From positions 4,650,001-4,714,000 of the forward strand of contig NC_091995.1 in the NCBI RefSeq assembly GCF_044704955.1: 64,000 nt of DNA, given 5' to 3'. The notes below the pieces were generated by a model. The model was not told the DNA's origin. It was given only the letters and a program-made list of their open reading frames with translations, and did no database searches. Shown here in pieces: positions 21,907-58,390 of the stretch (position 1 is its first letter; each line of letters starts with the position of its first letter). The stretch is from Pristiophorus japonicus. Lineage: Eukaryota. A program made the position numbers and the translations under genes.

Positions 21907-24415
21907 TGATACGTCCTTACTACACAGTATAAATGCACACGAGGCCCATGCTTGAGAGGTCAGTCTGTGACCTGTCCTTTATTCCTTAGCACTCAAGTGA
22001 TGAAGGTGGGTGGAGCTTCCCCTTTCATACCTGAAGGTCCAGGTTAGGAGTGTCTCCCACCTAGTGGTCAGTGTTCTCACAGTGTACAAATTAGGTCAGT
22101 TTATACATGGGTTACAATGCTGGTTGAATACATGACATCACCTCCCCCCCCCCCCCCCCCAAAGTCTTATTGGGATCACAGGTTGAGTCTCTCTGGTGGT
22201 TTACGCTCTCTTGTAGAGCGCCTGAGTTGGGGCTCCGGTTGTTGGGCGCTGGCCTGAGTGTCTGCAGTTTGCGGTGCCTCAGGCCTGTCCGGACTGACCA
22301 CAGTGACTGGGCTCTCCTCCCTTTGGTTCCGGTGTTCGGTCACCTGTTGTGGAGTGAACTCTACATCGTGTTCTTCCTCTGCTTCTTCTATGGGGTTGCT
22401 GAACCTCCTTTTTGTTTGATCCACATGTTTGCGGCAGATTTGTCCATTGGTAAGTTTAACTACCAGAATCCTATTTCCCTCTTTGGCAACCACAGTGCCT
22501 GCTAGCCATTTGGGCCCTGCAGCGTAGTTGAGGACAAAAACAGGATCATTTACATCAATACATCGCACCCTCGCATTCCTGTCATGGTAGTGATATTGTG
22601 ACTGGCGCCTGCTCTCGACAATTTCTTTCATGGTGGGGTGTATAATGGATAATCGTGTTTTGAACGTCCTTTTCATTAGCAGCTCTGCGGGTGGAACCCC
22701 TGTGAGCGAGTGTGGTCGGGATCTATAGGCCAACAGGAGGCGTGATAAGCGGGTTTGTAGGGAACCCCCTTGGAATCTGAGCATCCCCTGTTTGATTATC
22801 TGCACTGCTCGTTCTGCCTGGCCGTTTGAGGCCGGCTTGAACGGTGCCGTTCTAACATGGTTAATTCCATTGCCTGCCATGAAGTCCTGGAATTCAGGGC
22901 TTGTGAAGCACGGGCCATTGTCGCTGATCAAGATGTCCGGTAGACCGTGGGCGGCGAACAGTGCCCATAGACTTTCTACCGTGGCAGAGGATGTGCTTGA
23001 ATTTAAAATGTCACACTCGATCCATTTGGAGTAGGCGTCTACTACAACCAAAAACATTTTCCCCATGAAAGGACCTGCGTAGTCCACATGGATGCGTGAC
23101 CAAGGTTGGCGGGCCATGGCCAGGGGCTAAGGGGGGCTTCCCTGGGCGCATTGCCCAGCTGGGCACACATGTTGCACCTGCGAACACAAAGTTCCAGATC
23201 TGCGTCTATCCCTGGCCACCAAACGTGTGACCTGGCAATTGCCTTCATCGTGACAATGCCCGGGTGCCCATTGTGGAGTTCTCTGATGAACACCTCTCTG
23301 CCCATCTGGGGCATGACTACACGGTTTCCCCACAGTCGGCAATCGGCCTGAATCGAGAGTTCATCCTTGAGCCTGTGAAATGGTTTAAATTTCTCAGGGC
23401 ATGCCCTGTACGTGGCTGCCCAGTCCCCATTCAGGACACATTTCTTGACTAGAGACAATAGCAGGTCTCTATTTGTCCAGACTTTAATCTGACGGGCTGT
23501 CACGGGTGAGCCTTCGCTTCCGAAAGCTTCAACAGCCATGACCATCTCAGCAGCATGCTCGGTAGCCCCCTCAGTGGTGGCTAGTGGGAGTCTGCTGAGT
23601 GCATCGGCGCAGTTTTCGGTGCCCGGTCGGTGCCGAATTGTGTAGTCATAGGCAGCTAACGCGAGTGCCCACCTCTGTATGCGGGCCGATGCGTTTGCAT
23701 TTATGGCCTTCTTGTCGGCCAAAAGGGACATTAGGGGTTTGTGATCTGTCTCCAGCTCAAATTTCCTGCCAAACAGGTACTGGTGCATTTTCTTTACAGC
23801 ATATACACATGCGAGCGCCTCCTTTTCGACCATCCCGTAGCCCCTTTCTGCCTGGGACAGACTCCTGGAGGCATAAGCTACCGGCTGTAACTGACCCTTG
23901 GCATTGACATGCTGCAACACACACCCGACACCATAGGACGACACATCGCACGTTAACACAAGTTTCTTACGTGGGTTATATAGCGTTAACAGATTATTGG
24001 AACATAACAAATTGCGTGCTCTATTAAAAGCCCTTTCCTGGCTGTCCCCCCAGACCCCTTCGCGACCTTTGCGTAGGAGCATCTGTAGCGTGCTCAATTT
24101 GGGAAGAAAGTTACCAAAATAGTTCAGGAGCCCCAGGAACGAACGCAGCTCCGTCGTGTTACGGGGTCTGGGTGCTCTCTGAATCGCTTCCGTCTTGGAT
24201 GCAGTAGGGCTGATCCCGTCTGCTGCTACCCTCATCCCCAGGAATTCTACCCCTGGAGCTAGGAAGACGCACTTCGCCTTTTTCAGTCGCAGACCTACCC
24301 GGTCCAGTCTGCGTAGCACCTCCTCCAGGTTGTGGAGGTGTTCTTCAGTATCATAACCCGTAATGAGGATGTCGTCCTGAAAAACCACCGTCCCTGGAAT
24401 CGAATTGAGGAGGCT
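21907..24415 (-). mobile_element. Ty3/Gypsy LTR retrotransposon 3' half: partial RT, RNase H, integrase (frameshift ~23110), PPT and 3' LTR (21907-22137)
   Basis: FQDDILI, CDVSSYGVG, ETDHKPL, H2C2 zinc finger and integrase core (HVDYAGP, SDNGP, SNGQAER). Poly-G PPT followed by a TG...CA LTR. Confidence 0.95.
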
Positions 24416-26062
24416 GTACAGGAGCAAGTACAGGAGAAATGAGAAAGAGATGGTCGTCTTCACTAACAATGTAAATATGAAATATTACAGAAAATAAAAC
24501 CAGCTCTTCAATATGCTACTTTATAATGTTGTTCAGTTATTTTTGGTGAGTGTGTCGTACCTCTGCTCCTCGGGCAGACTCTCCTGAAGTAGACATGTTA
24601 ACGCACAGCAGACCACTGGCAGTGCTCAAACAGACTAAACAAGGCTCGACTTTGCAGCATGAAAGAGCTCAAGAGTCAATAGTAAAGTGTGGAGCAACTC
24701 GCTGATCTCAGCTGCCCAAAGCCTGAAGGAAAAGGTTTGGGCCTTTGAGAGGAGCGGACGAGAACTAATGGAAGGAAACGTTTGTAAAGCTAATTAGCAA
24801 AGGCGAGTGGACAATTTTGAACTAATTGAGTCAGAGTTTAGTGAAGTGGATGGGCTGGTACTCAATATTGAGGGCAAGTCACTGGGGAGCTGTGACATGG
24901 ATTTTTGCAACAGGTGCAGGGGCAGCAAGAAACAGAAATAACTGCTGGAGGAAACCGAGCATAGAAGATTATAGAGGATGTACTGACAGTAGGAAGGACG
25001 CTTGTAAAAACACTGAGAAAGCCACAACTTTGTGAAGACAGGAATAGGTCATTCAGCTCCACAAGCCTGTTCCACCATTCAATTAGATCAAGCCCCAACT
25101 CCTAATGGAGAAGACCAAGTCATGGCGGAAGTAGTATTTCAGAAGTCAGAGAACATGGTTAGGGCAAAGATGCAGTTGGTGAGGTGCAGAGAGATTCTGG
25201 CTGTAGGGAGGTGGGTGGTGATGAGTGTGGTAATGATGATGAGTTGGTTACCTAGAGATAGGTCTGTGCACATTGAAGATAAATGACAAAAGGTACTGGA
25301 GGAGCAGGAAGGGCTAAATGACAACGTAAGAAATCCTGTAAGGGCTCTGAACCCTCCCATGCAAGGATGGCCAAGAAAATCAAGGCAATTTCCTTTGACA
25401 TACTTCCTGTTCTGGGTGAAAGAGGTTTGTAAAACATGAGTAACTGCCAGTCAACTTGCTGCTAAAATAATACCAGGACTTTGAAAAGTAAATGGAGTTG
25501 ATCTTGTGACACAAAATGGGAGAGTGATGACCAAATAAAAACAATGGAACTGGTCAGGAACATTGAAGTAGCTGCAAGAAGCATTTACATTGGATAGGAG
25601 GGAGAAGGCCAGGAGGAAAGGTGATCCACATGACATTGATTACAGAGTGGAATCTAGACAGGAGGTGTGTGATATACAAGAACCAGGTAACATTAACAAG
25701 GGTAAACTAGGGGCCAAAAGGTGGGAACATCTACAGTAAGCTGTATAGACGTGAACGCTGAATGCATTAGGAATCAGCAATTACAAAACACGAGGCTACT
25801 GTACCACTCGGGAACTACAGTGTTGTGGGAATATTATAAACATGGCTGACTGCAGAGGATTGTGCACAGGGACAGGAGGAGCCTGTTCCACCGTTCAGTT
25901 AGATCATGGCTGATCTGTACCTCAACTGCATTTGCCCGTTTTTGCTCCATATCCCTTGATGCCCTGAACCAACAGAAATCTACCCATCTCAGTCTTGAAA
26001 ATGTTGAATTGTTTGATCCTCGTATTCAGTCTTTTGAGGGAAAGAGTTCCAGATTTCCACAA

Positions 26063-26926
26063 TTCTTTTGTCGAAAAACATAATTAAACATTAAATCAAG
26101 TGCCCCCTAATCTGAGGGGACACTCCAATCACTTATCAATGCCCTTCTTTTGTGGGTTTTTTTGTGGGGTTTTTTTGGGCAGTTAAAACGTGAATATATA
26201 CAAGTGCCCCCTATAAAAGGGGAGGGGGACACTACAACCGGCAATAAAACAAATTAAACTTTAAAACATATAAAATTAAATTAAAATTTGGTTGCCGGGG
26301 GTAATGATGCACTCCAGTCCCTCCAGCACCCACCTCTCATGGAAGGCCGCGAGCGTACCGGTGGACACTGCGTGCTCCATCTCCAAGAACACCCTGGCTC
26401 GGATGTACACACGGAAGAGAGGCAGGCAGTCAGGCTGAACGACCCCCTCGACCGCCCGCTGCCTGGACCGGCTGATGGCACCCTTGGCCGTGCCCAGGAG
26501 CAGTCCAACGAGGAGGCCCTCAGACCTACCCGCTCCCCCCCGCACAGGGTGCCCAAAGATCAGGAGTGTGGGACTGAAGTACAGCCAGAATTTCATGAGC
26601 AGCCCCTTTAAATAGTTGAAGAGGGGCTGCAACCTAGCACATTCGGTAAAAACATGGAACACGGACTCTTCCAAACCGCAGAAATTGCAGGCGGCCTGGG
26701 AGCCCATGAACCGACTTAAAAATTTGTTGCATTGGAACTGCTCCATGCACCACCCTCCAGGCCAAGTCCCCGATAAACAGTGGGAGGACTCCCGCCTCCT
26801 CCGGACGGCAAGATGGTGCGCCATGGCGTGTCCGGACGGCAGACAACGATGGCAAGGTTGAGAGTGTGCAGGAGCAGCCCGTACAGGAAACCCCTCTGCG
26901 CAGAACTGAAAGGCATGGAGGGGATT
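26063..26926 (-). mobile_element. 5'-truncated Tx1-like LINE (ORF2 C-terminal zinc finger plus 3' UTR) with 16-bp TSD
   Basis: CNFCGLEESVFHVFTEC zf-RVT-type motif. TTCCAGATTTCCACAA at 26047-26062 and 26927-26942. Clade assignment is by resemblance. Confidence 0.8.
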
Positions 26927-27674: not shown

Positions 27675-30453
27675 TGTTATGTAATGATGTGTGTATCGTC
27701 CCAGTACCTTAAATGTATTGTAAGTACTATGCCACACCACAGAGGGCGCTGCGGTGGGAAACCCTGGTAGTACCTGTAACAAGGGCTATATAAGGCTGAC
27801 CACCACACCTGGGAGGCACTCTCGAGCTGAACAATAAAGGACGAAGGTCACAGCAGCTAGACTTACACCAGACCGTGTGGAGTCAGTGATTTGTGTGCTA
27901 CATACACCACTTTGGCAACGAGGAAGTGGACGAACTCCACGCAACCATGGCTACTCTGGCCTCGCTAAAGGATTTTACCGTGGGCAATGATTGGGAGGCC
28001 TTTACGGAAAGGCTCGAGTACTACTTCAGGTCAGCAAATGACCTGACGGAGGACACATACGCAATGAGAGAGAAGCGCAAGGCGATATTACTCTCCAGTT
28101 GTGGAGATGAGGTTTACTGTCTCATCAGGAATTTGCTGGCACCCGGGAGCGCCAGGGACAAGTCATACGAGGAGCTGACTGAACTCATTCGTGACCAGTT
28201 GAAACCGAAGGAGAGCATCCTCACGGCCAGATACAAATTTTACCATCACTGCAGACCCGAGGGCCAGGATATCACCAAATATGCTGCGGACCTCAGGAGA
28301 CTCGCGGCGCCGTGTGATTTTGGGGCACACCTTGACGAGGCTTTGCGGGACGTTTTCATTATGGGGATTGGCCACGACGGCCTCCTTCACAAGCTGCTGG
28401 CCACGGAACCCACAGTCACTCTGACAAAGACCATCGCCATCAGCCGGGCATATATGACCTCTACTTGCAGCACCAAGAAAATAATCCACAGTCTCGAACC
28501 CAGCAGGCACTGTCCACAGGATAGCGCCCACCACGGACAAAACTGCAGAACGTGACTCTGCCCGGGGCAGAGAGCACGGACCTCGGGATCCTGGAGCTCA
28601 GAGTCCGCCGAGGGGGGCCAATCAAGCAGCACCATGCTGGCGCTGTGGAGGAAGCCATGGGGCTCACCGGTGCAGGTTTGCGGAGTATACGTGCAATACC
28701 TGCCACGTTAAAGGCCACCTTCAGCGTATGTGTAAAAGAAATCGGACTCACCATGTGGCTGAGGAGATGGGGGATGATCCACTGTTCAGCGAGGAGCAGG
28801 TAGAAGAAGATGAGGTGTTGGGACTGTATACGTGCACCGACGATTCGCCCCCAGTGATAAGTGAAGTAAAAATCAACGGAGTCCCAGTGAGTATGGAAGT
28901 GGACACGGGCTCGGGTCCGTCGTTGATGAGTCGGGGAACTTTTGATAAACTGTGGATTAACCCAGCTGCACGACCCAAGCTGGTCCCGGTCATGGCGAAG
29001 CTGCGTACCTACACCAGGGAACTAATACCTGTTCTCGGCTGAGCGATGGTGCAGGTATCCCGCGGGGACGAGACACACGGGGACGAGAGACACGAGACCT
29101 TTGTGGGTCGTTGCAGGCGATGGGCCGACACTCCTTGGCCGGAGGTGGATAGGGAAGGTCCGTGGGAGCTGGGAAGACTTCATTCCTCCACAGGCTGCTG
29201 CTCCCCGGGGTGCTGCCATGCCCCGGGTCCTCAGAGAGCAGCGCCGACCAAGCTGGAGCTGCAGCCTCAATCCCCCCACAGGCAAGTCCCAGGCCCGGAT
29301 CTCACACAGAGACCCTGCAGCCCCAGCCCCCACAGGCAAGTCCCAGGCCCGGACCTCACACAGAGACTCTGCAGCCCCAGCCCCCACAGGCAAGCAGCCC
29401 TGAACAGAGGGGCCTAGTGGGGGGGGGGGGGTAGTGAGCTGGCGGGGCGCTGCGGGCGGGGTGCTGAGGGATCCAGGGGCCGGTGGTTCGGAAGGGCCCC
29501 GCAGAGGAAGAGGCCGTTTGGCGGGCCCCGCCGAGGAGCTGGTAGCGTCGGGCGGCGGCAGCAGCTGGGGGTCGGCGGCCATGGCAGCCGCAGGGGAGGC
29601 CGCTACGGAGGCCGCGGGGGACGTGACAAGTGCAGCCGCTGGAGAGGCCACGGCGGCCGCAGGAGAGGCGGCAAGTCAGGTGGCAGCGGGTGGGAGCGGA
29701 GGCTGTGACGGCGGAGGGCATTCGGAGCGGCGGCGGAGAAGAAAATGGCGGCGGCATCGTGTCGGAGCTGCAGAGCATCAAAGATGGCGGCGCCCAAGGA
29801 GAAGCCTCGTGGAATCCTCCTGCATCAAAGATGGCGCCTTAAAGAGGAAATGCACCCAGGAGTCTTAAAAGGGCCTTACAAAGAGGTGGTCCCCACAAAG
29901 GACTTCTGTTTGGCAGAGCGAGTCTAAAATGAGCTATGTTAATGTGAGATAGTGAATTTATAATAAGAATTACTTTTTTTATGCTGAATGGCATATTTGT
30001 GTAAAATAATGGATGAAGTACAATTAATGATAACAGCTAACAAGGAAATCAAGTTTCCGCTACCAGTCAATAACCAGTTAATGTACCAGATAAAATGTAC
30101 CATACTAACGCACTGTCTATGCCCACCTGCCTTCCGTTGGACAAGTGTGATGTTATGTAATGATGTGTGTATCGTTGTCCTGCGTCCAGGTCCGGGGGCG
30201 GTGGGGGGGAAGGTGATGTTATGTAATGATGTGTGTATCGTCCCAGTACCTTAAATGTATTGTAAGTACTATACCACACCACAGAGGGCGCTGCGGTGGG
30301 AAACCCTGGTAGTACCTGTAACAAGGGCTATATAAGGCTGACCACCACATCTGGGAGGCACTCTGGAGCTGAACAATAAAGGACGAAGGTCACAGCAGTT
30401 AGACTTACACCAGACCGTGTGGAGTCAGTGATTTGTGTGCTACATACACCATA
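27675..30453 (+). mobile_element. Non-autonomous Gypsy-type LTR element: 237-bp LTRs (27675-27911, 30217-30453), tRNA-Ser-like PBS, gag with two CCHC knuckles, protease; no RT or integrase
   Basis: Near-identical LTRs and 5-bp TSD CTTCT (27670-27674, 30454-30458). PBS TGGCAACGAGGA; CWRCGGSH..C and CNTCHVKGH..C knuckles; MEVDTGS protease; PPT before the 3' LTR. Confidence 0.92.
29273..29394 (+). repeat. 54-bp tandem repeat (~2.3 copies) inside the LTR element
   Basis: GGCAAG at 29281, 29335 and 29389 with conserved units. Confidence 0.85.
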
Positions 30454-44346: not shown

Positions 44347-47300
44347 ACTTACAGGATTTCTTACATTGTCATTTAGCCTTTCCTGATCCTCCAGTACCTT
44401 TTGTCATTTATCTTCAACGTGCACAGACCTATCTCTAGGTAACCAACTCATCATCATTACCACACTCATCATCACCCACCTCCCTACAGCCAGAATCTCC
44501 CTGCATCCCACCAACTGCATCTTTGTCCTAACCATGTTCTCTACCTTCTGAACTGCTTCTTCCTCATGAATTAGCCTAATGCATTAGGAGTTAGTGATTG
44601 ATCTAGTTGAATGCTGGAACAGGCTCGAGAGGCTGACTGGCTTACTCCTGTTCCTATATCTGTACATTGTGTCTTTACAATCATTCCTCCTGCTGTCAGT
44701 GTATTCTCTATTCTCTTGCTTGCTCGGTTTCCTCCAGCAGTTATTTCTGTTTCTTGCTGACCCTGTACCTGTTGCAAAAATCCCTGTCCCAGCTCCCCAG
44801 TGACTCGCCCTCAATTATGAGTACCAGCCCATCCACTTCACTAAACTCTGACTCAATTAGTCCAATACTATCCACTGGCCTTTGCTAATTAGCTTTCCAA
44901 TCGTTTCCTTGCATTAGTTCCCGTCCGCTCCTCTCAAAGGCCCAAACCTTTTCCTTCAGTTTTTGGGCAGCTGAGATCAGCGAGTTGCTCCGCACTTTAC
45001 TATTGACTCTCGAGCTCCTTCATGCTGCAAAGTCGAGCCTTGTTTAGTCTGTTTGAGCACTGCCAGCGGTCTGCTGTGCGTTAACCTTTGTGTTTCTGTC
45101 TATTTCAGGAGAGTACACCAGAGTAGCAGAGGTTCAAGACGCTCTCCAAAAATAACTGAACAACATTATAAAGTAGCATATTGAAGAGCTGGTTTTATTT
45201 TCTGTTTAATATTTCATATTTACATCATTAGTGAAGACGACCATCAGCCAAACATAGCGGAAGGCAGCCTGTCTCTGAGAGCATTTAAAGGGCTACCCAG
45301 TATAGAGTGTGGAGACATGTAATGGACATTCTCAACCCTGGTACGGAGGGCCTTTCCTGTTTTCTTACTTAACCCGTCAAATCCTCAATAAGTGGGCACA
45401 TCTTAAGAATACCAGACACAAGTACAAAAATGTAAATATTATCCATACCCACTTCAAATAAGAAAATAAATGAAATAGCAGCATGTGATGTCTGATTCAT
45501 GATTTATAATACAACAATCAAATACTAATCACAACTATTTTAGAAGCAATCAGCCATTATAATTAATTCATTAGTAAACAAGCAGTGATTTAAATCATTA
45601 ACCTCTTACAGTGGGTTCTCTCATGGTTTAAAACTGGAGAATTAATGCACGAGTATATTCACAACTGATTTGGTCAAATCACTTTCAATCACCTCCTGAC
45701 TCCCCAAAGCATATAAAAAGCACAAGTCAGAAGTGTGATGGAATACTCTCGGCTTTCCTGGTTGAGTGCAGTTCCAGCAAAGTTCAAGAAGCTCGACACC
45801 ATCCAGGACAAAGCAGCCGCTTGATTGGCACCGACCCACCACCTTAAACATTCACTCCTTCCACCACCGTCACACTGTGGCTGCAGTGTGTACCATCTAC
45901 ACGTTGCTCTGCAGCAACTCCCAAACCCATGACCTCTACCACCTAGAGGGACAAGGGCAGCAGATGCAGGGGAACACCCTCACCTACAAGTTCCCCTCCA
46001 AGTTACATACCACCTTCACTTGGAAATATATCAGCCGTCCCTTCATTGTCGCTGGGTCAAAATCCTGGAACTCCCTAACAGCACTGGGGGAGCACCTTCA
46101 CCTCACAGACCGCAGCAGTTCAAAAAGGTGGCTCACCACCCCCTTCTCAAGGGCAATGAGGGATGGGCAATAAATGCTGGCCTTGCACCACCACATCCCA
46201 GGAATGAATGAACAAAATACAGAAGAGACTTTCAACATGGAATTTTTGCACTTCAATGAAAAAAGATTAAGAAAAGGCCTTGAAGGGAGTGGAACACGGG
46301 GAAGTTTGAAAATATTTGTGAAGAAAATGAAGTAAATCAGAAATATAATGGTTGAGTGATGTCAGGAATGTGTTTTTAAATCTGTAGATTTTAGAAAGAA
46401 GCAGAGACAGAAAAAAAATAAAAGAAACTGACGGATTTCTGAGCGGCCTCCAGCGGGTGTTTGAAGAGCAGCTGGTTCGGCCACTCAACGCTCCCTCACT
46501 CCGCCCATTTGTACCTCAGAATTGCAATCAGGGTCCTCTGTATGTCACGGGACCCTGGTTTGACGAGGTTTCCCCTCTGAAACAGGCGGGCGTTCCCGCT
46601 GTCCATCTCAGGACCCCACCCAAGTGCCAGCGTGAACTTTAGTGCCATTTCCAGGCGACTATCGCTCCGGTTACACCAGGTGGGGGCTCTTACAATCAGC
46701 CCCGTTAGTTCAGGATAGGAGCAGGAGGCCATTCAACCCCTGGAGCCTGTCCCGCCATTCAATGAGATCATGGCTGAGCTGTGTCCAAACTCCATATACC
46801 CGCCTTTGCCCTATATCTCTTAATACCTTTGGTTAATGAAAATCTGTCAATCTCAGGTTTAAAATTAACAATTGATCCAGCATCAATTGCGGTTTGTGGA
46901 AGAAAATTCCAAACTTCTCCCACCCTTTGTGTGTCGAAGTATTTTATAACTTCACTCCTGAAAGGCCTGGCTATAATTTTTAGACGATGACCCTAGTCCT
47001 AGACTCCCCAAGCAGTGGAAATACTTGCTCTCAGTTCCCCTTAATATCTTGAAAACTTCGATCAAATCATGTCTTAAACTTCTAAATTCCAGGGAAGGAT
47101 AAAATAAGGATCCAGAGCAAGGTGCAAATTTTAAAAAATACGTTTAGTCCATGACTCTGGGACGTAATTATTCCTCGAATCGTTTAAAAAAAAATAACTG
47201 CCGCTTCTATTGTGCAGTTTAATAACAGACTTGGCATTGGAATTCTGGAATTCTTTGAGGATATAATGAGCATGGAGGTGTACCGATGGATGTGGTGTAT

Positions 47301-47785
47301 TTAGATTTCCAAAAGGCATTCGATAAGGTGCCACACAAAAGGTTACTGCAGAAGATAAAGGTTCGCGGAGTCAGAGGAAATGTACTAGCGTGGATAGAGA
47401 ATTGGCTGGCGAACAGAAAGCAGAGAGTCAGGATAAATGGGTCCTTTTCGGGTTGGAAATCGGTGGTTAGTGGTGTGCCATAGGGATCGGTGCTGGGACA
47501 ACAACTGTTTACAATATACATAGATGACCTGGAAGAGGGGACAAAGTGTAGTGTAACAAAATTTGCAGATGGCACAAAGATTAGTGGGAAAGCGGGTTGT
47601 GTAGCGGACACAGAGAGGCTGCAAAGAGATTTAGATAGGTTAAGCGAATGGGCTAAGGTTTTGCAGATGGAATACAATGTCGGAAAGTGTGAGGTCATCC
47701 ACCTTGGGGAAAAAAAACAGTAAAAGGGAATATTATTTGAATGGGGAGAAATTACAACGTGCTGCGGTGCAGAGGGACCTGGGGG

Positions 47786-50362
47786 TCCTTGCGCATGAAA
47801 CTCTTTTAGGGAGTTAATGGAAAAAACATTAAACCGTGCCCCCCGATCTGGGGGAAACACCAACATTTACAATGCCATTTTTTTTTTGGCACAGAATTGA
47901 ATTTTTCTCCAAGTGCCCCCTATAAAAGGGGAGGTGGACACTAAAAGCACCGGCAATTAAAACAAATTAAACTTTAAAATGTAAACAAATGATTTTGTAA
48001 TTAAACACAATGAATGTTCGGAGTGGGATTCAAACCCATGCCTGCAAAGAAGACTGTGAGCTGAACACAGCACCTTGGACCACTCGGCCATCCTGACTGC
48101 TTCCTTGTGCATGAAACTCTTTTGAGTTTACCTGAAAAAAAAACATTAAACCGTGCCACCCGCCCTGGATGACACAGCAGACATTTTCAAGGCCCTTTTT
48201 TTTCCTTTTTTGTGGTTTTTTTTTTGTGTTTTTCTTTTTTTTTGGGTGCTAAATCACATTTTTCCAAGTGCCCCCACTAAAAGGGGAGGGGGACACTAAA
48301 AGCACCGGCAATTAAAACAAATTAAACTTTAAAACGTAAAATCAAATTAAAATTTGGTTGCCGGGCGTGATGATGCACTCCAGTCCCTCCGGTGCCCACC
48401 TCTCGCGGAAGGCCACAAGCGTACCGGTGGACACCGTGTGCTCCATCTCCAAGGACACCCTGGACCGGATGTAAGAGTGGAAGAGAGGCAGAAAGTCAGG
48501 TTGAACGACCCCCTCGACCGCCCGCTGCCTGGACCGGCTGATGGCACCCTTGTGCATGAAACTCTTTTAGAGTTTATCTGTAAAACAAAACATTAAACCG
48601 TGCCACCCGACCTGGGTGACACACCAGACATTTACAAGGCCCTTTTTTTTCTTCCTTTTTTTTTGTGTTTTTCTTTTTTTTGGTTTTTTTTTTGGGCACT
48701 AAAATCACAATTTTTCCCCAGTGCCCCCTATAAAAGGGAAGGGGGACACTAAAAGCACCGGCAATTAAAACAAATTAAACTTTAAAACGTAAAATCAAAT
48801 TAAAATTTGGTTGCCGGGCGTGATGATGCACTCCAGTCCCTCCGGTGCCCACCTCTCGCGGAAGGCCGCGAGCGTACCAGTGGACACCGCGTGCTCCATC
48901 TCCAAGGACACCCTGGACCGGATGTAAGAGTGGAAGAGAGGCAGGCAGTCAGGTTGAACGACCCCCTCGACCGCCCGCTGCCTGGACTGGCTGATGGCTT
49001 CCTTGTGCATGAAACTCTTTTTGAGTTTATCTGTGAACATAAAAAGACATTAAACCGTGCCACCCGCCCTGGATGACACAGCAGACATTTACAAGGCCCC
49101 TTTTCTTTTTTCTTTTTTTGGTTTTTTTTTGGGGCGCTAAAATCAAATTTTTTCCAGTGCCCCCTATAAAAGGGGAGGGGGACACTAAAAGCACCGGCAA
49201 TTAAAACAAATTAAACTTTAAAACGTAAAATCAAATTAAAATTTGGTTGCCGGGCGTGATGATGCACTCCAGTCCCTCCGGTGCCCACCTCTCGCGGAAG
49301 GCCGCGAGCGTACCAGTGGACACCGCGTGCTCCATCTCCAAGGACACCCTGAACCGGATGTAAGAGCGGAAGAGAGGCAGGCAGTCAGGTTGAATGACCC
49401 CCTCGACCGCCCGCTGCCTGGACCGGCTGATGGCTTCCTTGTGCATGAAACTCTTTTAGAGTCTACCTGCAAAACATAAAACATGTATCCGTGCCACCCG
49501 ACCTGGATGACACACCAGACATTTATAAGGCCCTTTTTTTCTTTCTTTTTTTTTGTTTTTTGTTTTTTTTTGGGCACTAAAATCAAATTTTTTCCTTTTT
49601 CCAGTGCCCCCTATAAAAGGAGAGGGGGACACTAAAAGCACCGGCAATTAAAACAAATTAAACTTTAAAACGTAAAATCAAATTAAAATTTGGTTGCCGG
49701 GCGTGATGATGCACTCCAGTCCCTCCGGTGCCCACCTCTCACGGAAGGCCACGAGCGTACCGGTGGACACCGCGTGCTCCATCTCCAAGGACACCCTGGA
49801 CCGGATGTGAGAGCGGAAGAGAGGCAGGCAATCAGGTTGAACGACCCCCTCGACCGCCCGGTGCCTGGACCGGCTGATGGCTTCCTTGTGCATGAAACTC
49901 TTTTAAGTTTACCTGCAAAACATAAAAACATTAAACGGTGCCACCCGACCTGGGTGACACTCCAGACATTACAAGGCCCTTTTTTTTTTTCCCCCCCTTT
50001 TTTTTTGTTTTTTTTTTGTGTTTTTCTTTTTTGGTTTTTTTTTGGGCACTAAAATCACAATTTTCCCCAGTGCCCCCTATAAAAGGGAAGGGGGACACTA
50101 AAAGCACCGGCAATTAAAACAAATTAAACTTTAAAACGTAAATTCAAATTAAAATTTGGTTGCCGGGCGTGATGATGCACTCCAGTCCCTCCGGTGCCCA
50201 CCTCTCGCGGAAGGCCGCGAGCGTACCGGTGGACACCGCGTGCTCCATCTCCAAGGACACCCTGGACCGGATGTAAGAGCGGAAGAGAGGCAGGCAGTCA
50301 GGTTGAACGACCCCCTCGACCGCCCGCTGCCTGGACCGGCTGATGGCTTCCTTGTGCATGAA
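47786..50362 (-). mobile_element. Head-to-tail array of six Tx1-like 3'-end units separated by seven copies of the CR1 target (T)CCTTGTGCATGAA
   Basis: Target copies at 47786, 48102, 48548, 49000, 49436, 49883 and 50349. Five units encode AISRSRQRAVEG...PGNQILI*, homologous to 26063-26926. Confidence 0.92.
48015..48097 (-). tRNA. tRNA-Leu(CAG)-derived pseudogene, 83 nt
   Basis: GTCAGGATGGCCGAGTGGTCCAAGG..CTGTGTTCAGCTCACAG..GGGTTTGAATCCCACTCCGAACA aligns with vertebrate tRNA-Leu-CAG. It has two acceptor-stem mismatches and TTC->TTT in the T-loop. Confidence 0.88.
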
Positions 50363-51429
50363 TCCCAAAATGTTAGTTTGCAGGTGCAGCAGGTAATCAG
50401 GAAGGCGAATGGAATGTTGGCCTTCATTGCGAGAGGGATGGAGTACAAAAGCAGGGAGGTTCTGCTGCAACTGCAATTGGTGAGGCCGCAACTGGAGTAC
50501 TGCGTGCAGTTTTGGTCACCTTACTTAAGGAAGGATATACTAGCTTTGGAGGGGGTACAGAGACGATTCACGAGGCTGATTCCGGAGATGAGGGGGTTAC
50601 CTTATGATGATAAATTGAGTAGACTGGATCTTTACTCGTTGGAGTTCAGAAGGATGAGGGGTGATCTTATAGAAACATTTAAAAATAATGAAAGGGATAG
50701 ACAAGATAGAGGCAGAGAGGTTGTTTCCACTGGTCGGGGAGACTAGAACTAGGGGGCACAGCATCAAAAAAACGGGGGAGCCAATTTAAAACCGAGTTAA
50801 GAAGGAATTTCTTCTCCCAGAGGGCTGTGAATCTGTGGAATTTTCTGTCCAAGAAAGCAGTTGAGGCTAGCTCATTGAAATGTATTCAAGTCACGGATAG
50901 ATTGATTTTTAACCAATAAGGGAATTTAGGGTTACGGGGAGTGGGCGGGTAAGTGGAGCTGAGTCCACGGCCAGATCAGCCATGATCTTGTTGAATGGCG
51001 GAGCAGGCTCGAGGGGCTAGATGGCCGACTCCTGTTCCTAATTCTTATGTTCTTATGTATGTTCAGACACCTTCTGCCTGTGGAGAAACATTACAGGCAG
51101 GAAGGTCACCGGGTTCCTGCAGTTCTCAGCTCATTCCACCCAGTGAGTTCCTCTCCACAATTCACCATCCAGTGTTTCTTCTCCCCCTCCACCCCGCTCT
51201 CTATCCCACTCCCCCCGCTCTCTCTCCCACCTCCACCCGCTCTCTCTCCCTCTCCCCCTCCCCCCGCGCTCTCCCCCCATCCCTCTCTCCCGCTCCCCCC
51301 CACACTCTCTCTCCCCTCCCCCCATTCTTTCTCTCCCTCCCCCGCTCGCTCTTCCCCCGCTGTGACAGAGACTGATGCCCATCAGTTTTCAGCTGGTAAG
51401 AGGCAGGGTGAAATTATGGGATGGGCCTG

Positions 51430-54400: not shown

Positions 54401-56232
54401 AAACAATCCCAATCCAATCTTTCCTCGTAGCTAAAATTCTCCAGTCCAGGCAACATCCTCGCAAATCGCCTCTGTACCCTCTCTAGTGCAATCACACCTT
54501 TCCTGTAATGTGGTGACCAGAACTGCACGCAGTACTCTAGCTGTGACCTAACTAGTGTTTTATACAGTTCAAGCGTAATCTCCCTGCTCTTGTATTCAAT
54601 GCCTCGGTGAATGAAGACAAGTATTCCGTATGCCTTCTTAACCACCTTATCTACCTGTGCTGCTACCTTCAGGGATCTGTGGACACGCACTCCAAGGTCC
54701 CTCTGTTCCACAATGACTTGTGATGATCAGGAATGCACTGAATGACAGCGTGGAGGAAGCAGATTTCATGGTAATTTTAAAAAGGGAATTGGAAATACAC
54801 TTGAAATGGAAATAAATGCAAGGCTATGGGGAAAGAGGAGTGGGATTAATAGGATCGCTCTTTCAAAGAGCCACACAGACACGATGGGCCATTTGTGCTG
54901 TAGGATTCTATGACTGTAAGTAGTTGAACATTCCGATTCATGTGTCAGATACTGGAACTCAACATCAGTGCCACTCACACACACAGTGACTGTCACACCC
55001 ACCGTACCACACACACCACACACCACAACATGGAACTGGAACTGGATTGCAATGTGAGTTCTGGGAGATATTAAACTATGGGGCAGCACAGAAATAATTA
55101 TAAGCAAAGTATTAACATCACAGCAACCCATTCCCATGATTTTACAGACAGTGTGGGAGTGGGATATTTCCGTGTCGATAGCAGAACCGCCCATGAATAG
55201 ACAAAACAATCGGTTTAAATCAGTTTCGAAATGTTCAGCAAAAGCTGCATTTATTTTAGTTATCATCAGTTATTTTGTGACTGTGTGAAGTTTCACTGAA
55301 TTGACCCACAATATAATCCTCACCTTCAGCAATGTCAGTCCGTCTTTTTGCTCCATCTGTTTCTGCAACTTTGAGAGCTCCTCCTGAATAGAATTTAAAT
55401 TCTCTTGAATCTGTCGAAGATTTTCCTCCATTGTTTCTAGAATCTTCCCCTCTTGTTCCCTGAGATCTCGGATTAAACGCTGCTCTTTCTCAATGAGAAT
55501 CTGGTGCATTTTAGTGAACTCGAATGTGATGCGGGTCTGCAGACTGCTCGACTGTTCCTACCAAATGAAATATGAAACATAATTAATGTCCCGGGATAAA
55601 GGGAACAAAACTAACCGAGATCCCAGAAAATCAGCTCAGGGAGACCTTACCCTAATTCCGGAAATCTGCTGTTTCTGTTTTAATTCCGTTTCTAGAGCCG
55701 CCGATTTCTTCTCCGTGAGAGAATCTAAGGAAGATTTCAGCCGATCCTGGGATTGGGAGAGAAAATCACGGAGTAAACGTGTTAGACCATGAAAATATGA
55801 TAAAATAATCAGGTGATCAAATCTGTTCCCTGTTACCTTGTAAAATTCAACAGCTTCTTTAATGGGCATGAAGCGGTGCTCTCTGTGTTCCCGCGCAACA
55901 ACACACATCACGCAGATCAATTTCCTGTCAGTTTCACAAAACAGCTTCAGTTCTTCCTGATGTTCCTCACAGTGAAGTTTACTTTCTGTCTCTTTCGGAT
56001 TCGGGGTTAATTTTCGAGCTTTCTCGGCCAGATTCGCTGCCATCCGATTTACCCTGAGGTTTCTTTCCGGAAACTCCTCTCTACATTCCGGGCAGGAGTT
56101 TGTCTCCTTCTTTTCCCAACACTGTGTGATACAGGCGCGGCAGAAGTTATGCCCACACTCCAGTAAAACCGGATCGGTGAAGAAATCCAGACAAATGGGA
56201 CAAATTGCCTCCTCAGCCAAACTCGCGGCCAT
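51430..56232 (-). CDS. Intact TRIM copy D, RFP/TRIM27/TRIM39-like E3 ligase (RING-B-box-CC-B30.2), 471 aa; exons 56232-55837, 55746-55651, 55557-55324, 53740-53718, 53633-53518, 51980-51430
   Basis: aacATGG start; C3HC4 RING, B-box, coiled-coil and PRY/SPRY motifs. Introns are GT-AG with consistent phases, and the 1416-nt spliced frame is open. Confidence 0.92.
53995..54710 (-). mobile_element. CR1 3' fragment in intron 3 of copy D
   Basis: ORF 54379-54711 has [21 protein letters not shown]; tail repeat present. Confidence 0.85.
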
Positions 56233-58390
56233 GTTTTCTCTCAGCACTTCCTGATTCAATCCGCTCTCAGTTACAGTGTTTACTGAGCTGCCGAACACCC
56301 TCAGTTCAGCGATTTCCCGAAGAAGTTCACTGCAATACTCAGGGATGTCCCGTCGACTTTTACACGGGGAGACAAAACTTCGAGCAGACTGAAGGACAAA
56401 CAGGGTTGGAGCACGGAGGGGACGAACTGAACCCCGGCCGGGAGGGTGAAAGTCCCTGGGGTATTGGCAGTGGGAGGAGGGAGGGAGAGAGGGGGGAGGA
56501 GGCGGGGATTGGCGGGGCTCCAGATTCCAGTGCACTTTGCTCCGGACCGAACTCACTGCCGACTGCACACCCTCTGGTGAAACTCGGTGTGAGATAAACA
56601 GAATCGTGTTAACGATCGCAGCCGCTCACCCTAAAACACAAAGTGCCCTCAATGTCAAGGAGCTGTCTGGAAACCATGACCAGTGTCAGTGCTTCCTGAT
56701 TGAAACTGCTGGAGTCATGTTTCTGTGGGTGGATCCAGACCCGGTTCCCAGTCACAGATCACTCTGAGTCCCTGGAAGTGCTGCCCACATCTGGATGAAA
56801 TAGAATCGCATTTACAAAGTCTGTGTCGTTTCGGGATGAGCACCGCGTTATACTGGGAGTCAGCGGTCATTTTATTGAGGCTGGGAAGCGGGAGAGGGGA
56901 AATGAGGAAGGCAGTGGAGAGATGAATGCTGATTTGGAAGACAGCGTTTTATTTTATAGATTTTGTATGCAGTGTTATGATGCAAAATGGTGCGGTGCCC
57001 ATTTTCTAGAAATTTTGCGTTAGTGCCCGAGACCAATTTCACTCCAGAATTCCTGCATTGAGTTTTTTTGTTCTTAATGAAAATGCATTCACCATCGATC
57101 ACATGAGTTTAGAGTGGTCTCAGCATCTTTATTACTCCCATTAATCTAACAATTCATATAACACAAATGAAATTAAAAAAAACAGTTATGCCAGACAACA
57201 ACTCTGAAGCAGGAAGTCGAAGCGCTGGTTACTAGTCTATCATTGACTGCATTGCTATTCACTACAATATCACAGTGAACATTTAGAAGCACAGTCCCAA
57301 TGGATGGGTTTCTTCTGTTTAAATTGCAGAACTGACGAGCACTGGGTGATTGTTTCTGTGTTCTACCAAGTGATCTAAGTCTGTAAAGCACTTCCTAAGG
57401 TTGTGAAATGCGCTATATAAATGGAAGTTGCATTTTTTTATTGTCGTGGCCACTAACTTTATTAATGTGAGACAGTTGCTAGAATACAATAGGATGATAA
57501 TCTTGTCAGTAAATTATCGAGTTACATAAAACTTCAGAGAGCCTGCATTACCTCCTGTTCTCATCAGCTGCCTGATAAACAGACTGTCACTCACACTGAC
57601 TGTTCTGTGCTTAATAGATTGGCATGTGGTAGCAAGATCAATCATATCAAAGTGATTTCAAAACTATCAACGCCTCGATATCCTCACTGCGACAATGACA
57701 GGAACAAATTAGATCTGGAAAGTTATATTTCTGTGTAGTTATGGACATTGACAGGAAGTTAGTCCCACTGACACTTGGAAACATACATTGGAACTAAAAT
57801 AAGTTTCCAAGATCATTACAAATGATGGAGGCCATTCTGCCCATCTTGAGGCATCAGAGAGATCTTCACTTCATCCCATTGTCCCATTGACTTGTTTCTT
57901 TAATGATTCCAGGGTTTGACAAGATTATCATCACTCTATCTGGAATTTCATTCCACATTGTGATGACTCTGGGGTGGGGATGGGGAGGAGATTTTGAAGC
58001 CTACCACTGCTGCAAACAAGGTGGCAGTGCCATAAAAATGTACTGACCACTGGTGGCCCCTGTGATCCTGATCCACTACAAGGAGCCCTGCGGCCCCCGG
58101 TCTCCTGCGGTTCTCAAGCAGAATGATGTGTGCAAAATATTGCAGGTTTCTGAAGGCAGTGGTTCATCCAAGAAACCCTGTATTTGTTATATTGGGAGAG
58201 CTGAAATTTCAGCTGACTACTTGAGGCGCTGTTTTAGAAAGTGGTTTTGTTGCAGAAATAAGTTTAATTCTACTCAGCGCCATTTGTAACCCTGATACAT
58301 TGCAACTGCTTAAAGATCATCTTTGATATGATTTGTTCATTGTATATCACATGAGTTATAAATCAGAACATAGGAACCTATGAGTTTTAC

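Follow-up and report, generated by a model that had tools for sequence, protein, structure and literature searches.

A tRNA-Leu precursor joined to the tail of a site-specific Tx1 LINE in Pristiophorus japonicus: a probable template-jump chimera among many at one target site

Results

The locus

In this study we analysed 64,000 nt of Pristiophorus japonicus DNA (the window; GCF_044704955.1, contig NC_091995.1, positions 4,650,001-4,714,000 of the forward strand) and searched the 5.9-Gb genome for related sequences. A unit with a tRNA-Leu head and a LINE-derived tail is the last of six that are stacked inside the RT coding region of a plus-strand host LINE (Table 1). The layout that had been read earlier from the sequence alone (target copy, AGCA, an 83-nt tRNA-Leu without CCA, a trailer of ~30 nt, the LINE 3' UTR and again the target copy) was confirmed on the minus strand, with a trailer of 32 nt. 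The last three T of the trailer are common to the LINE tail in the junction comparison, and the tail consists of 3' UTR only, without ORF2 sequence. The tRNA-Leu(CAG) at 48097-48015 is the only tRNA that ARAGORN finds in the window; we call it degenerate because its Rfam score lies just at the threshold (RF00005, 29.4 bits against a gathering score of 29, E 0.0023). The tail carries T4+ runs at 47979, 47962, 47946, 47927 and 47826. Both hairpins claimed for it do fold, with modest scores here (z -1.9 and -1.6; 13 of 200 shuffles equal); hairpin 2 folds strongly in two neighbours (z -3.3 and -4.1), and the folding of the whole tail has no significance (z -0.85). Across the six stack units 98% of the cells of hairpin 2 are paired, with one two-sided change that is located in the window unit, a covariation without significance since 87 of 500 shuffles reach the same level.

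Table 1. Features of the window, in order of position
Feature	Position	Strand	Basis
LTR-retrotransposon RT, RNase H and integrase frames	22176-24484	-
Older Tx1-like 3' fragment of another family, short flanking duplication, different site	26060-26900	-	71% to stack unit
Two long direct repeats that flank a gag-like region	27700-30450
Host CR1-like LINE, RT coding part before the target	47259..47799	+	Pfam RVT_1 below cutoff, E 2.5e-6 and 7.9e-4; translation
3' copy of target site, one mismatch	47786..47799	-	sequence
Tx1-clade LINE 3' UTR, 183 nt, subfamily unlike the stack neighbours; five T4+ runs	47800..47982	-	sequence comparison
3' UTR hairpin 2 (predicted)	47836..47860	-	folding; one two-sided change against neighbours
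3' UTR hairpin 1 (predicted)	47912..47942	-	folding, z -1.9
32-nt 3' trailer ending at the T-run of the source gene (presumed Pol III terminator)	47983..48014	-	source loci, L002
Degenerate tRNA-Leu(CAG), without CCA	48015..48097	-	ARAGORN; Rfam RF00005 29.4 bits
4-nt pre-tRNA 5' leader AGCA (AACA in source loci)	48098..48101	-	source loci, L002, L248, L263
5' copy of the 14-nt target site (TSD), shared with the upstream stack unit	48102..48115	-	sequence; same site bounds insertions genome-wide
Five 5'-truncated Tx1 units, 436-466 nt, target copies between	48116..50348	-	same 5' start, different 3' UTR variants
Host CR1-like LINE, ORF2 C-terminal part and 3' end	50349..51062	+	RT/endonuclease protein relatives
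RING + B-box (TRIM-like) reading frame	55636-56625	-

The tail donor and its target

The 3' tip of the LINE together with the target gave 15,664 exact matches genome-wide, at one site inside a CR1-like LINE, and empty target sites gave 24,459, a ratio of filled to empty sites that is rough because the two patterns differ. The target lies in ORF2 of the host LINE, antisense to the Tx1 insertions. We presume the host LINE to be of CR1 type from its motifs; its named eukaryotic relatives are those of cartilaginous fishes. Full-length copies of the tail donor are 7.2 kb long and 93-100% alike, and several have intact ORFs of 702 and 1,306 aa. Pfam recognises endonuclease (APE) and RT domains in ORF2 and gave no match for ORF1. 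ORF2 is 49% identical over 1,296 aa to that of Xenopus laevis Tx1L (YTX2), and 64% in the RT region. When 30 of the 3' ends were sampled, 27 were at the target (24 whole and three shortened inside stacks) and three elsewhere. Two ORFs, APE and RT domains, a Tx1L-like ORF2 and site-specific insertion with a TSD are the features of the Tx1 clade, and the claim that this LINE made the window insertion at a site shared with its relatives is well supported. A tandem array of full-length 7.2-kb copies with intact ORFs lies at G000:C1:9.71-9.77 Mb (L117-L121). Two neighbouring copies in it are 100% identical, and the family is therefore probably recent or active. The element itself may already be catalogued in Repbase or Dfam.

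The source of the head

A query made of head and junction was scored on 40 of 1,527 candidates, and among these scored matches all besides the window and one other locus (L002) cover query bases 2-118 only and then diverge. We fetched 28 loci of this source type (L003-L030), which have common flanks on both sides. Their match to the head runs from the 4-nt leader to the T-run with which the trailer closes, in agreement with the earlier proposal of a pre-tRNA-derived head, and the trailer thus does match a tRNA-Leu locus, one that is repeated. The AGCA of the window unit is the pre-tRNA leader, and the head is the copy of a precursor transcript from a real, repeated tRNA-Leu locus. This degenerate locus and its neighbouring tRNA genes recur on many contigs, often ~100 kb apart, and one copy (L008) sits among other tRNA genes. 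The head differs from the 28 loci at 10-12 of 119 nt, including five private substitutions, and among the 40 of 1,527 candidates scored no exact source copy was found. L002 is a second, independent Leu chimera at the same target, with the same leader, here in the AACA form, and the same end point followed by a tRNA-like piece and then by Tx1 ORF2. Two more Leu captures (L248, L263) come from another locus type, also carry AACA and have the same leader start. These independent captures all carry joins unlike that of the window unit.

The head might also have arrived as DNA, if recombination or repair had put a fragment of a tRNA gene in the place of the 5' part of a unit already in the stack. 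The trailer has an imperfect similarity to Tx1 at the joint, stacks do exchange sequence, and the AAGGAAGC found at the window junction occurs also at the private 5' junction of four stack neighbours and could hint at copying at the DNA level. We nevertheless regard such a replacement, which the sequence-only reading had named as the finding that would overturn it, as extremely unlikely: the head runs from leader to terminator like many other captures, no flanking gene DNA was carried along, and the tail matches another subfamily elsewhere (80 of 85) far above the best neighbour (51).

Is the unit a SINE?

In its head the window unit resembles a SINE2 element, being tRNA-derived with A and B boxes (in degenerate form), and so it does in its tail, which is shared with a LINE 3' end inside a TSD. 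T4 is a terminator of Pol III, and a terminator-free body is lacking here with five T4+ runs before the 3' end. Dispersed copies with one head-tail junction were likewise missing from three pattern searches of the genome. The junction of tRNA, trailer and tail has one match; the trailer ending off its usual flank has three (the window, L002 and one source variant); and any B box shortly before this tail has eight matches at six loci, whose heads are all different (control, one). These searches used exact or degenerate patterns, which diverged copies may escape. No recurring junction of head and tail was found among 36 capture events or among 98 sampled junctions (see below). As a SINE the unit would be largely dead since Pol III would stop at the T-runs before the tail end; transcription through the tail is not impossible, as read-through of a T4 occurs in one capture (L197).

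A tRNA-Leu SINE that is young or low in copy number and is moved by the Tx1 LINE would account for the canonical order of head, tail and TSD. Such a family might be overlooked by exact patterns where its copies have diverged, and Tx1 elements do mobilise SINEU in crocodilians (PMC4494074). Yet the junction is single-copy, other Leu captures have other joins, the tail holds its five T4+ runs, and no junction recurs; moreover captures are a small minority of the LINE copies, the pattern expected from independent template switches according to the available text of PMC4494074. A new SINE, as first proposed, is hence very unlikely, and of the two origins offered at the outset the template-switch chimera seems to be the right one. 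The window unit has what defines chimeric retrocopies of small RNAs and LINEs: a sense RNA copy lies 5' of a truncated LINE inside one TSD pair, the head is bounded by transcript ends and the junction is unique. A tailless retropseudogene was also considered for it and is ruled out by the 183 nt of Tx1 3' UTR; another locus (L061) may be such a case.

Other captured RNAs at the same target

The fusion in the window is one of dozens that we observed at this target site. A search for the target with an A-box motif gave 42 matches (control, 0), of which 39 were true by hand count and represent 36 events. Two chance A-box matches (L036, L046) and a SINE at the site with no Tx1 3' end in view (L070) were dropped, and two groups of matches (L043/L044 and L073/L074/L076) were each counted once. 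The heads fall into six classes (15 Tyr, 9 SINE, 6 Lys, 3 Ile, 2 Arg and 1 Phe), and 10 of the 36 events are chains of two or three RNAs. The Tyr source gene (L236) belongs to a 1.42-kb tandem array; its intron is retained in all 15 Tyr heads chosen by the A box and its trailer in 14. We compared 83 distinct tRNA-like 3' ends, counting those of SINE heads, and none carries CCA. Among 29 dispersed Tyr trailers that were fetched, 28 lie at the target (23 events, with L228-L233 counted as one) and one carries a CR1-type tail. One capture (L197) passes the first T4 and ends at the second T4 of its source, which fits an RNA template. Where Tyr stands behind another RNA, the first base of the leader varies by no more than 1 nt in nine of nine events, and these Tyr 5' ends are therefore complete.

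A second pattern, a T4 run followed by the Tx1 tip, gave 277 rows, the first 100 of which represent 81 sites. Of the 66 sites inspected, 45 hold recognisable small RNAs attached to a Tx1 remnant of just the final 9-15 nt; the other 15 sites comprise nine apparent host deletions, two already counted, two tandem duplicates and two not fetched. Captured at the target are intron-containing pre-tRNAs, SINE RNAs and, as confirmed by Rfam, 5S, vault, tRNA-Sec, U1 and U6 RNAs; Pol III terminators are the usual end point. Some degenerate copies were given their isotype names provisionally, in part by ARAGORN at a relaxed threshold, and relaxed ARAGORN calls inside Tx1 ORF2 were treated as false. The Tx1 3' tip is present on nearly every capture; two lack a clear one (L061, L221). 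Tip variants differ among captures and match variants of Tx1 subfamilies, and some captures are truncated at the 3' or the 5' side (L040, L099, L345). In a sample chosen by the 3' junction only (98 junctions from one contig, duplicates included), three showed a small RNA, nine were insertions of the tip alone (11-13 nt) and 17 could not be followed to the 5' end. From the three junctions we estimate ~480 captures genome-wide (95% range 100-1,360), so such fusions likely number in the hundreds.

Capture is not unique to this family. CR1-type 3' tails with captured RNAs were seen at four loci (L208, L342, L343, L344), including a chain of U6, a Lys-like pre-tRNA and a LINE tail. Other Tx1-like families at other targets, one of them in an LTR-like repeat, carry tRNA or SINE heads (L349, L351, L353), and the head of L353 is an intron-containing Tyr. 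ARAGORN finds a 16-nt intron in captured tRNA-Arg(TCG) precursors (L050, L061, L207, L239, L241, L264, L273), and a Pro-like tRNA (L354:1333-1420) is apparently intron-bearing as well; in mammals these two types are not known to have introns. At two loci (L061, L237) tip plus target is briefly matched within the trailer of a pre-tRNA-iMet, and it is precisely at this match that L061 ends. Such a layout suggests direct priming by pairing between RNA and target; perhaps Tx1 RNA carries target sequence at its 3' end. At five further loci (L129, L184, L252, L276, L138) the DNA that directly follows the target on its downstream side is copied, in most cases in inverted orientation, 5' of the tip; these would be apparent jumps onto target DNA. 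At L247 at least 500 nt of GC-rich sequence lie 5' of a captured pre-tRNA-iMet; Rfam gave it no name, and we take it to resemble an rDNA spacer.

The stacks

The 5' start common to the five upstream units occurs 20 times genome-wide, and its AAG variant is found only in this stack. The last 85 nt of each of the six units score 75-85 against other loci and 51-67 against the neighbours. It had been argued earlier from the deviating tRNA unit that the stack holds at least two independent insertions. The independent insertion of this unit stands; the number is probably too low, since the six 3' ends are each closer to other loci. One 5' truncation point combined with different 3' UTR variants was seen in seven of eight sampled stacks of truncated units (besides 48116-50348 of the window: L102, L107, L121, L133/L171, L144, L165 and L168). 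Unit bodies are near-identical with differing UTRs in two pairs, and the rest differ by 1-4% throughout. As a possible hypothesis, stacks might grow by repeated target-primed reverse transcription (TPRT) at the TSD, during which the cDNA would acquire the 5' junction of the unit already resident beside it. Tandem arrays made by re-insertion at the TSD have been described for R1 (PMC2718515). For stacks in which the first unit also has the common 5' end and no two 3' ends agree, we rejected unequal crossing-over as the sole cause; it does fit one identical pair (L118/L119).

Discussion

Taken together, the unit at 47800..48101 is, to judge from its sequence, a one-off fusion of an unprocessed pre-tRNA-Leu with the 3' UTR of a site-specific Tx1 LINE. 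Site specificity, the TSD, an intact source element, the precursor features of the heads and the chains of RNAs are all observed directly. We think it very probable that the fusion arose when the LINE RT left its own RNA for a nascent Pol III transcript, onto whose U-tailed 3' end it jumped, and serial template jumping during TPRT in the nucleus would with high probability be the general mechanism. ORF2p would first nick the target and prime on the 3' end of Tx1 RNA. Synthesis would then stall, after ~185 nt in the window unit and very often after ~11 nt elsewhere. The 3' end of the cDNA, often an A, would take the 3' U-run of a nuclear precursor RNA as its next template, and at the 5' end of the captured RNA the RT would jump to another RNA or to the upstream target strand. 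Nearly every capture ends in the Tx1 tip, and nine of the 98 sampled insertions are tip alone, which points to Tx1 RNA as the template on which synthesis begins and frequently halts. A T is shared at the joint to the Tx1 body in 11 of 16 hand-picked cases (10 of 16 if L062 is re-placed) against a rough null of 0.39 (p 0.016), and the remaining five share no T; from an original 19 joints, two with an intervening tail of another family (L203, L075) and one whose donor does not end in T (L045) had been dropped. The shared T may point to short A:U pairing. A precedent is given by the R2 RT, which in vitro jumps serially with the help of 1-nt pairing (PMC8594491).

A join made between RNAs has also to be considered, in which RtcB or another ligase connects the pre-tRNA to a fragment of Tx1 RNA and the fused RNA is then retrotransposed, as for U6/L1. 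The orientation and the T-run ends are as in U6/L1 chimeras (PMC6789731), and U6 was captured at this site too (L337, L345). According to PMC6789731, however, RtcB depends on a 5'-OH together with a 2',3'-cyclic phosphate, and ligation drops strongly when the ends are 3'-OH or 5'-triphosphate. For the captured RNAs the end chemistry is deduced here from what is established for Pol III. In the chains, terminator ends are joined directly to complete leaders (nine of nine Tyr cases), L337 is a pre-tRNA joined to an intact U6 5' end, and an 11-nt tip alone would be without the hairpins of the 3' UTR. U6 itself is rare at the target, with none among the 66 inspected sites; the number of U6 captures is to be read as a floor because the U6 family search scored only 48 candidates, mostly gene arrays. 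Ligation is thus in our view unlikely. As these RNAs should not have the ends that RtcB requires, and serial jumping is known from R2 in vitro, we prefer serial template jumping, and the sequence favours a join by jump over one by RNA ligation.

SINEs are thought to arise when a LINE RT switches onto a tRNA, and the intermediates are rare and scattered in mammals. The window unit exemplifies the presumed raw material of SINEs and not a SINE family. At a single known 14-nt site we have dozens of such intermediates, expect hundreds and also have the intact source element, so that the rules of capture become countable: which RNAs are chosen, how much pairing is needed and why most are barred by internal terminators from turning into SINEs. 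The system allows template jumping to be separated from RNA ligation, its captures would form a record of nascent Pol III transcripts of the germ line, and it suggests a strongly jumping, site-specific RT that is open to in vitro testing. As a joint reading, which we put forward tentatively and which may prove wrong slightly more readily than right, a vertebrate Tx1 LINE might supply the germ line with an enzyme that jumps serially from the end of one template to the next, stalls ~11 nt into its own RNA and threads nascent Pol III transcripts in succession into one address. The result would be a fossil library of several hundred precursor RNAs with their start sites, introns and terminators, and a nursery of SINEs; the same loose cDNA end would copy the 5' junction of resident neighbours and so build stacks with one 5' end and many 3' ends.

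Template-switch chimeras as such are already known, and template switching has been proposed as the origin of SINE heads (PMC5786205); new here are the scale, the chains, the precursor ends and the single address. In the literature covered (mostly open-access papers without their supplements) we found no Tx1 element that targets a LINE coding region and none that captures whole pre-tRNAs in chains, nor a precedent for this scale, for whole sense pre-tRNAs, for chains or for one fixed address. The comparisons that follow hold as far as the available text of the cited papers goes. Xenopus laevis Tx1L (YTX2) likewise combines an APE endonuclease with an RT and has two ORFs; it targets the DNA transposon Tx1D (PMC4494074), whereas the shark family targets a CR1-like LINE. 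Crocodilian SINEU and Tx1-Mar (PMC4494074) share with our system the Tx1-clade machinery, a target inside another transposon, tandem insertions around the TSD and the repeated 5' addition of small-RNA heads. SINEU, however, forms amplified families with U1/U2 heads and a Mariner target, while here we see no amplified chimera, heads from Pol III precursors and a target in LINE coding sequence.

L1 makes tailless and pre-tRNA retropseudogenes (Schmitz 2004, via PMC4476161 and PMC2912911), which are also retrocopies of nuclear tRNA precursors. These are without LINE sequence and usually 3'-truncated; in contrast, nearly all captures described here keep the 3' tip of Tx1, and the terminator is where most of them stop. 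Human tRNA/LINE-1 chimeras (PMC13174262) similarly hold tRNA and LINE in one event with a TSD, at 21 loci, mostly half-length and antisense and read as twin priming, whereas we find whole sense precursors with leader, intron and trailer. In U6/L1-type chimeras (PMC4476161, PMC6789731), too, a sense small nuclear RNA lies 5' of a truncated LINE between TSDs; triple chimeras occur occasionally, and L2 and RTE make such chimeras as well (PMC4476161). In those chimeras the captured RNA is mainly U6 or U6atac, and ligation by RtcB has been implicated, while at the shark target pre-tRNAs and 5S dominate and chains are common (10 of 36 events), all at one target. The R2 RT (PMC8594491) also copies whole RNAs serially end to end with a 1-nt pair at the cDNA 3' end. 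Its activity was seen in vitro for an element with a restriction-like endonuclease, whereas the record described here would be one left in vivo by an element of the APE type.
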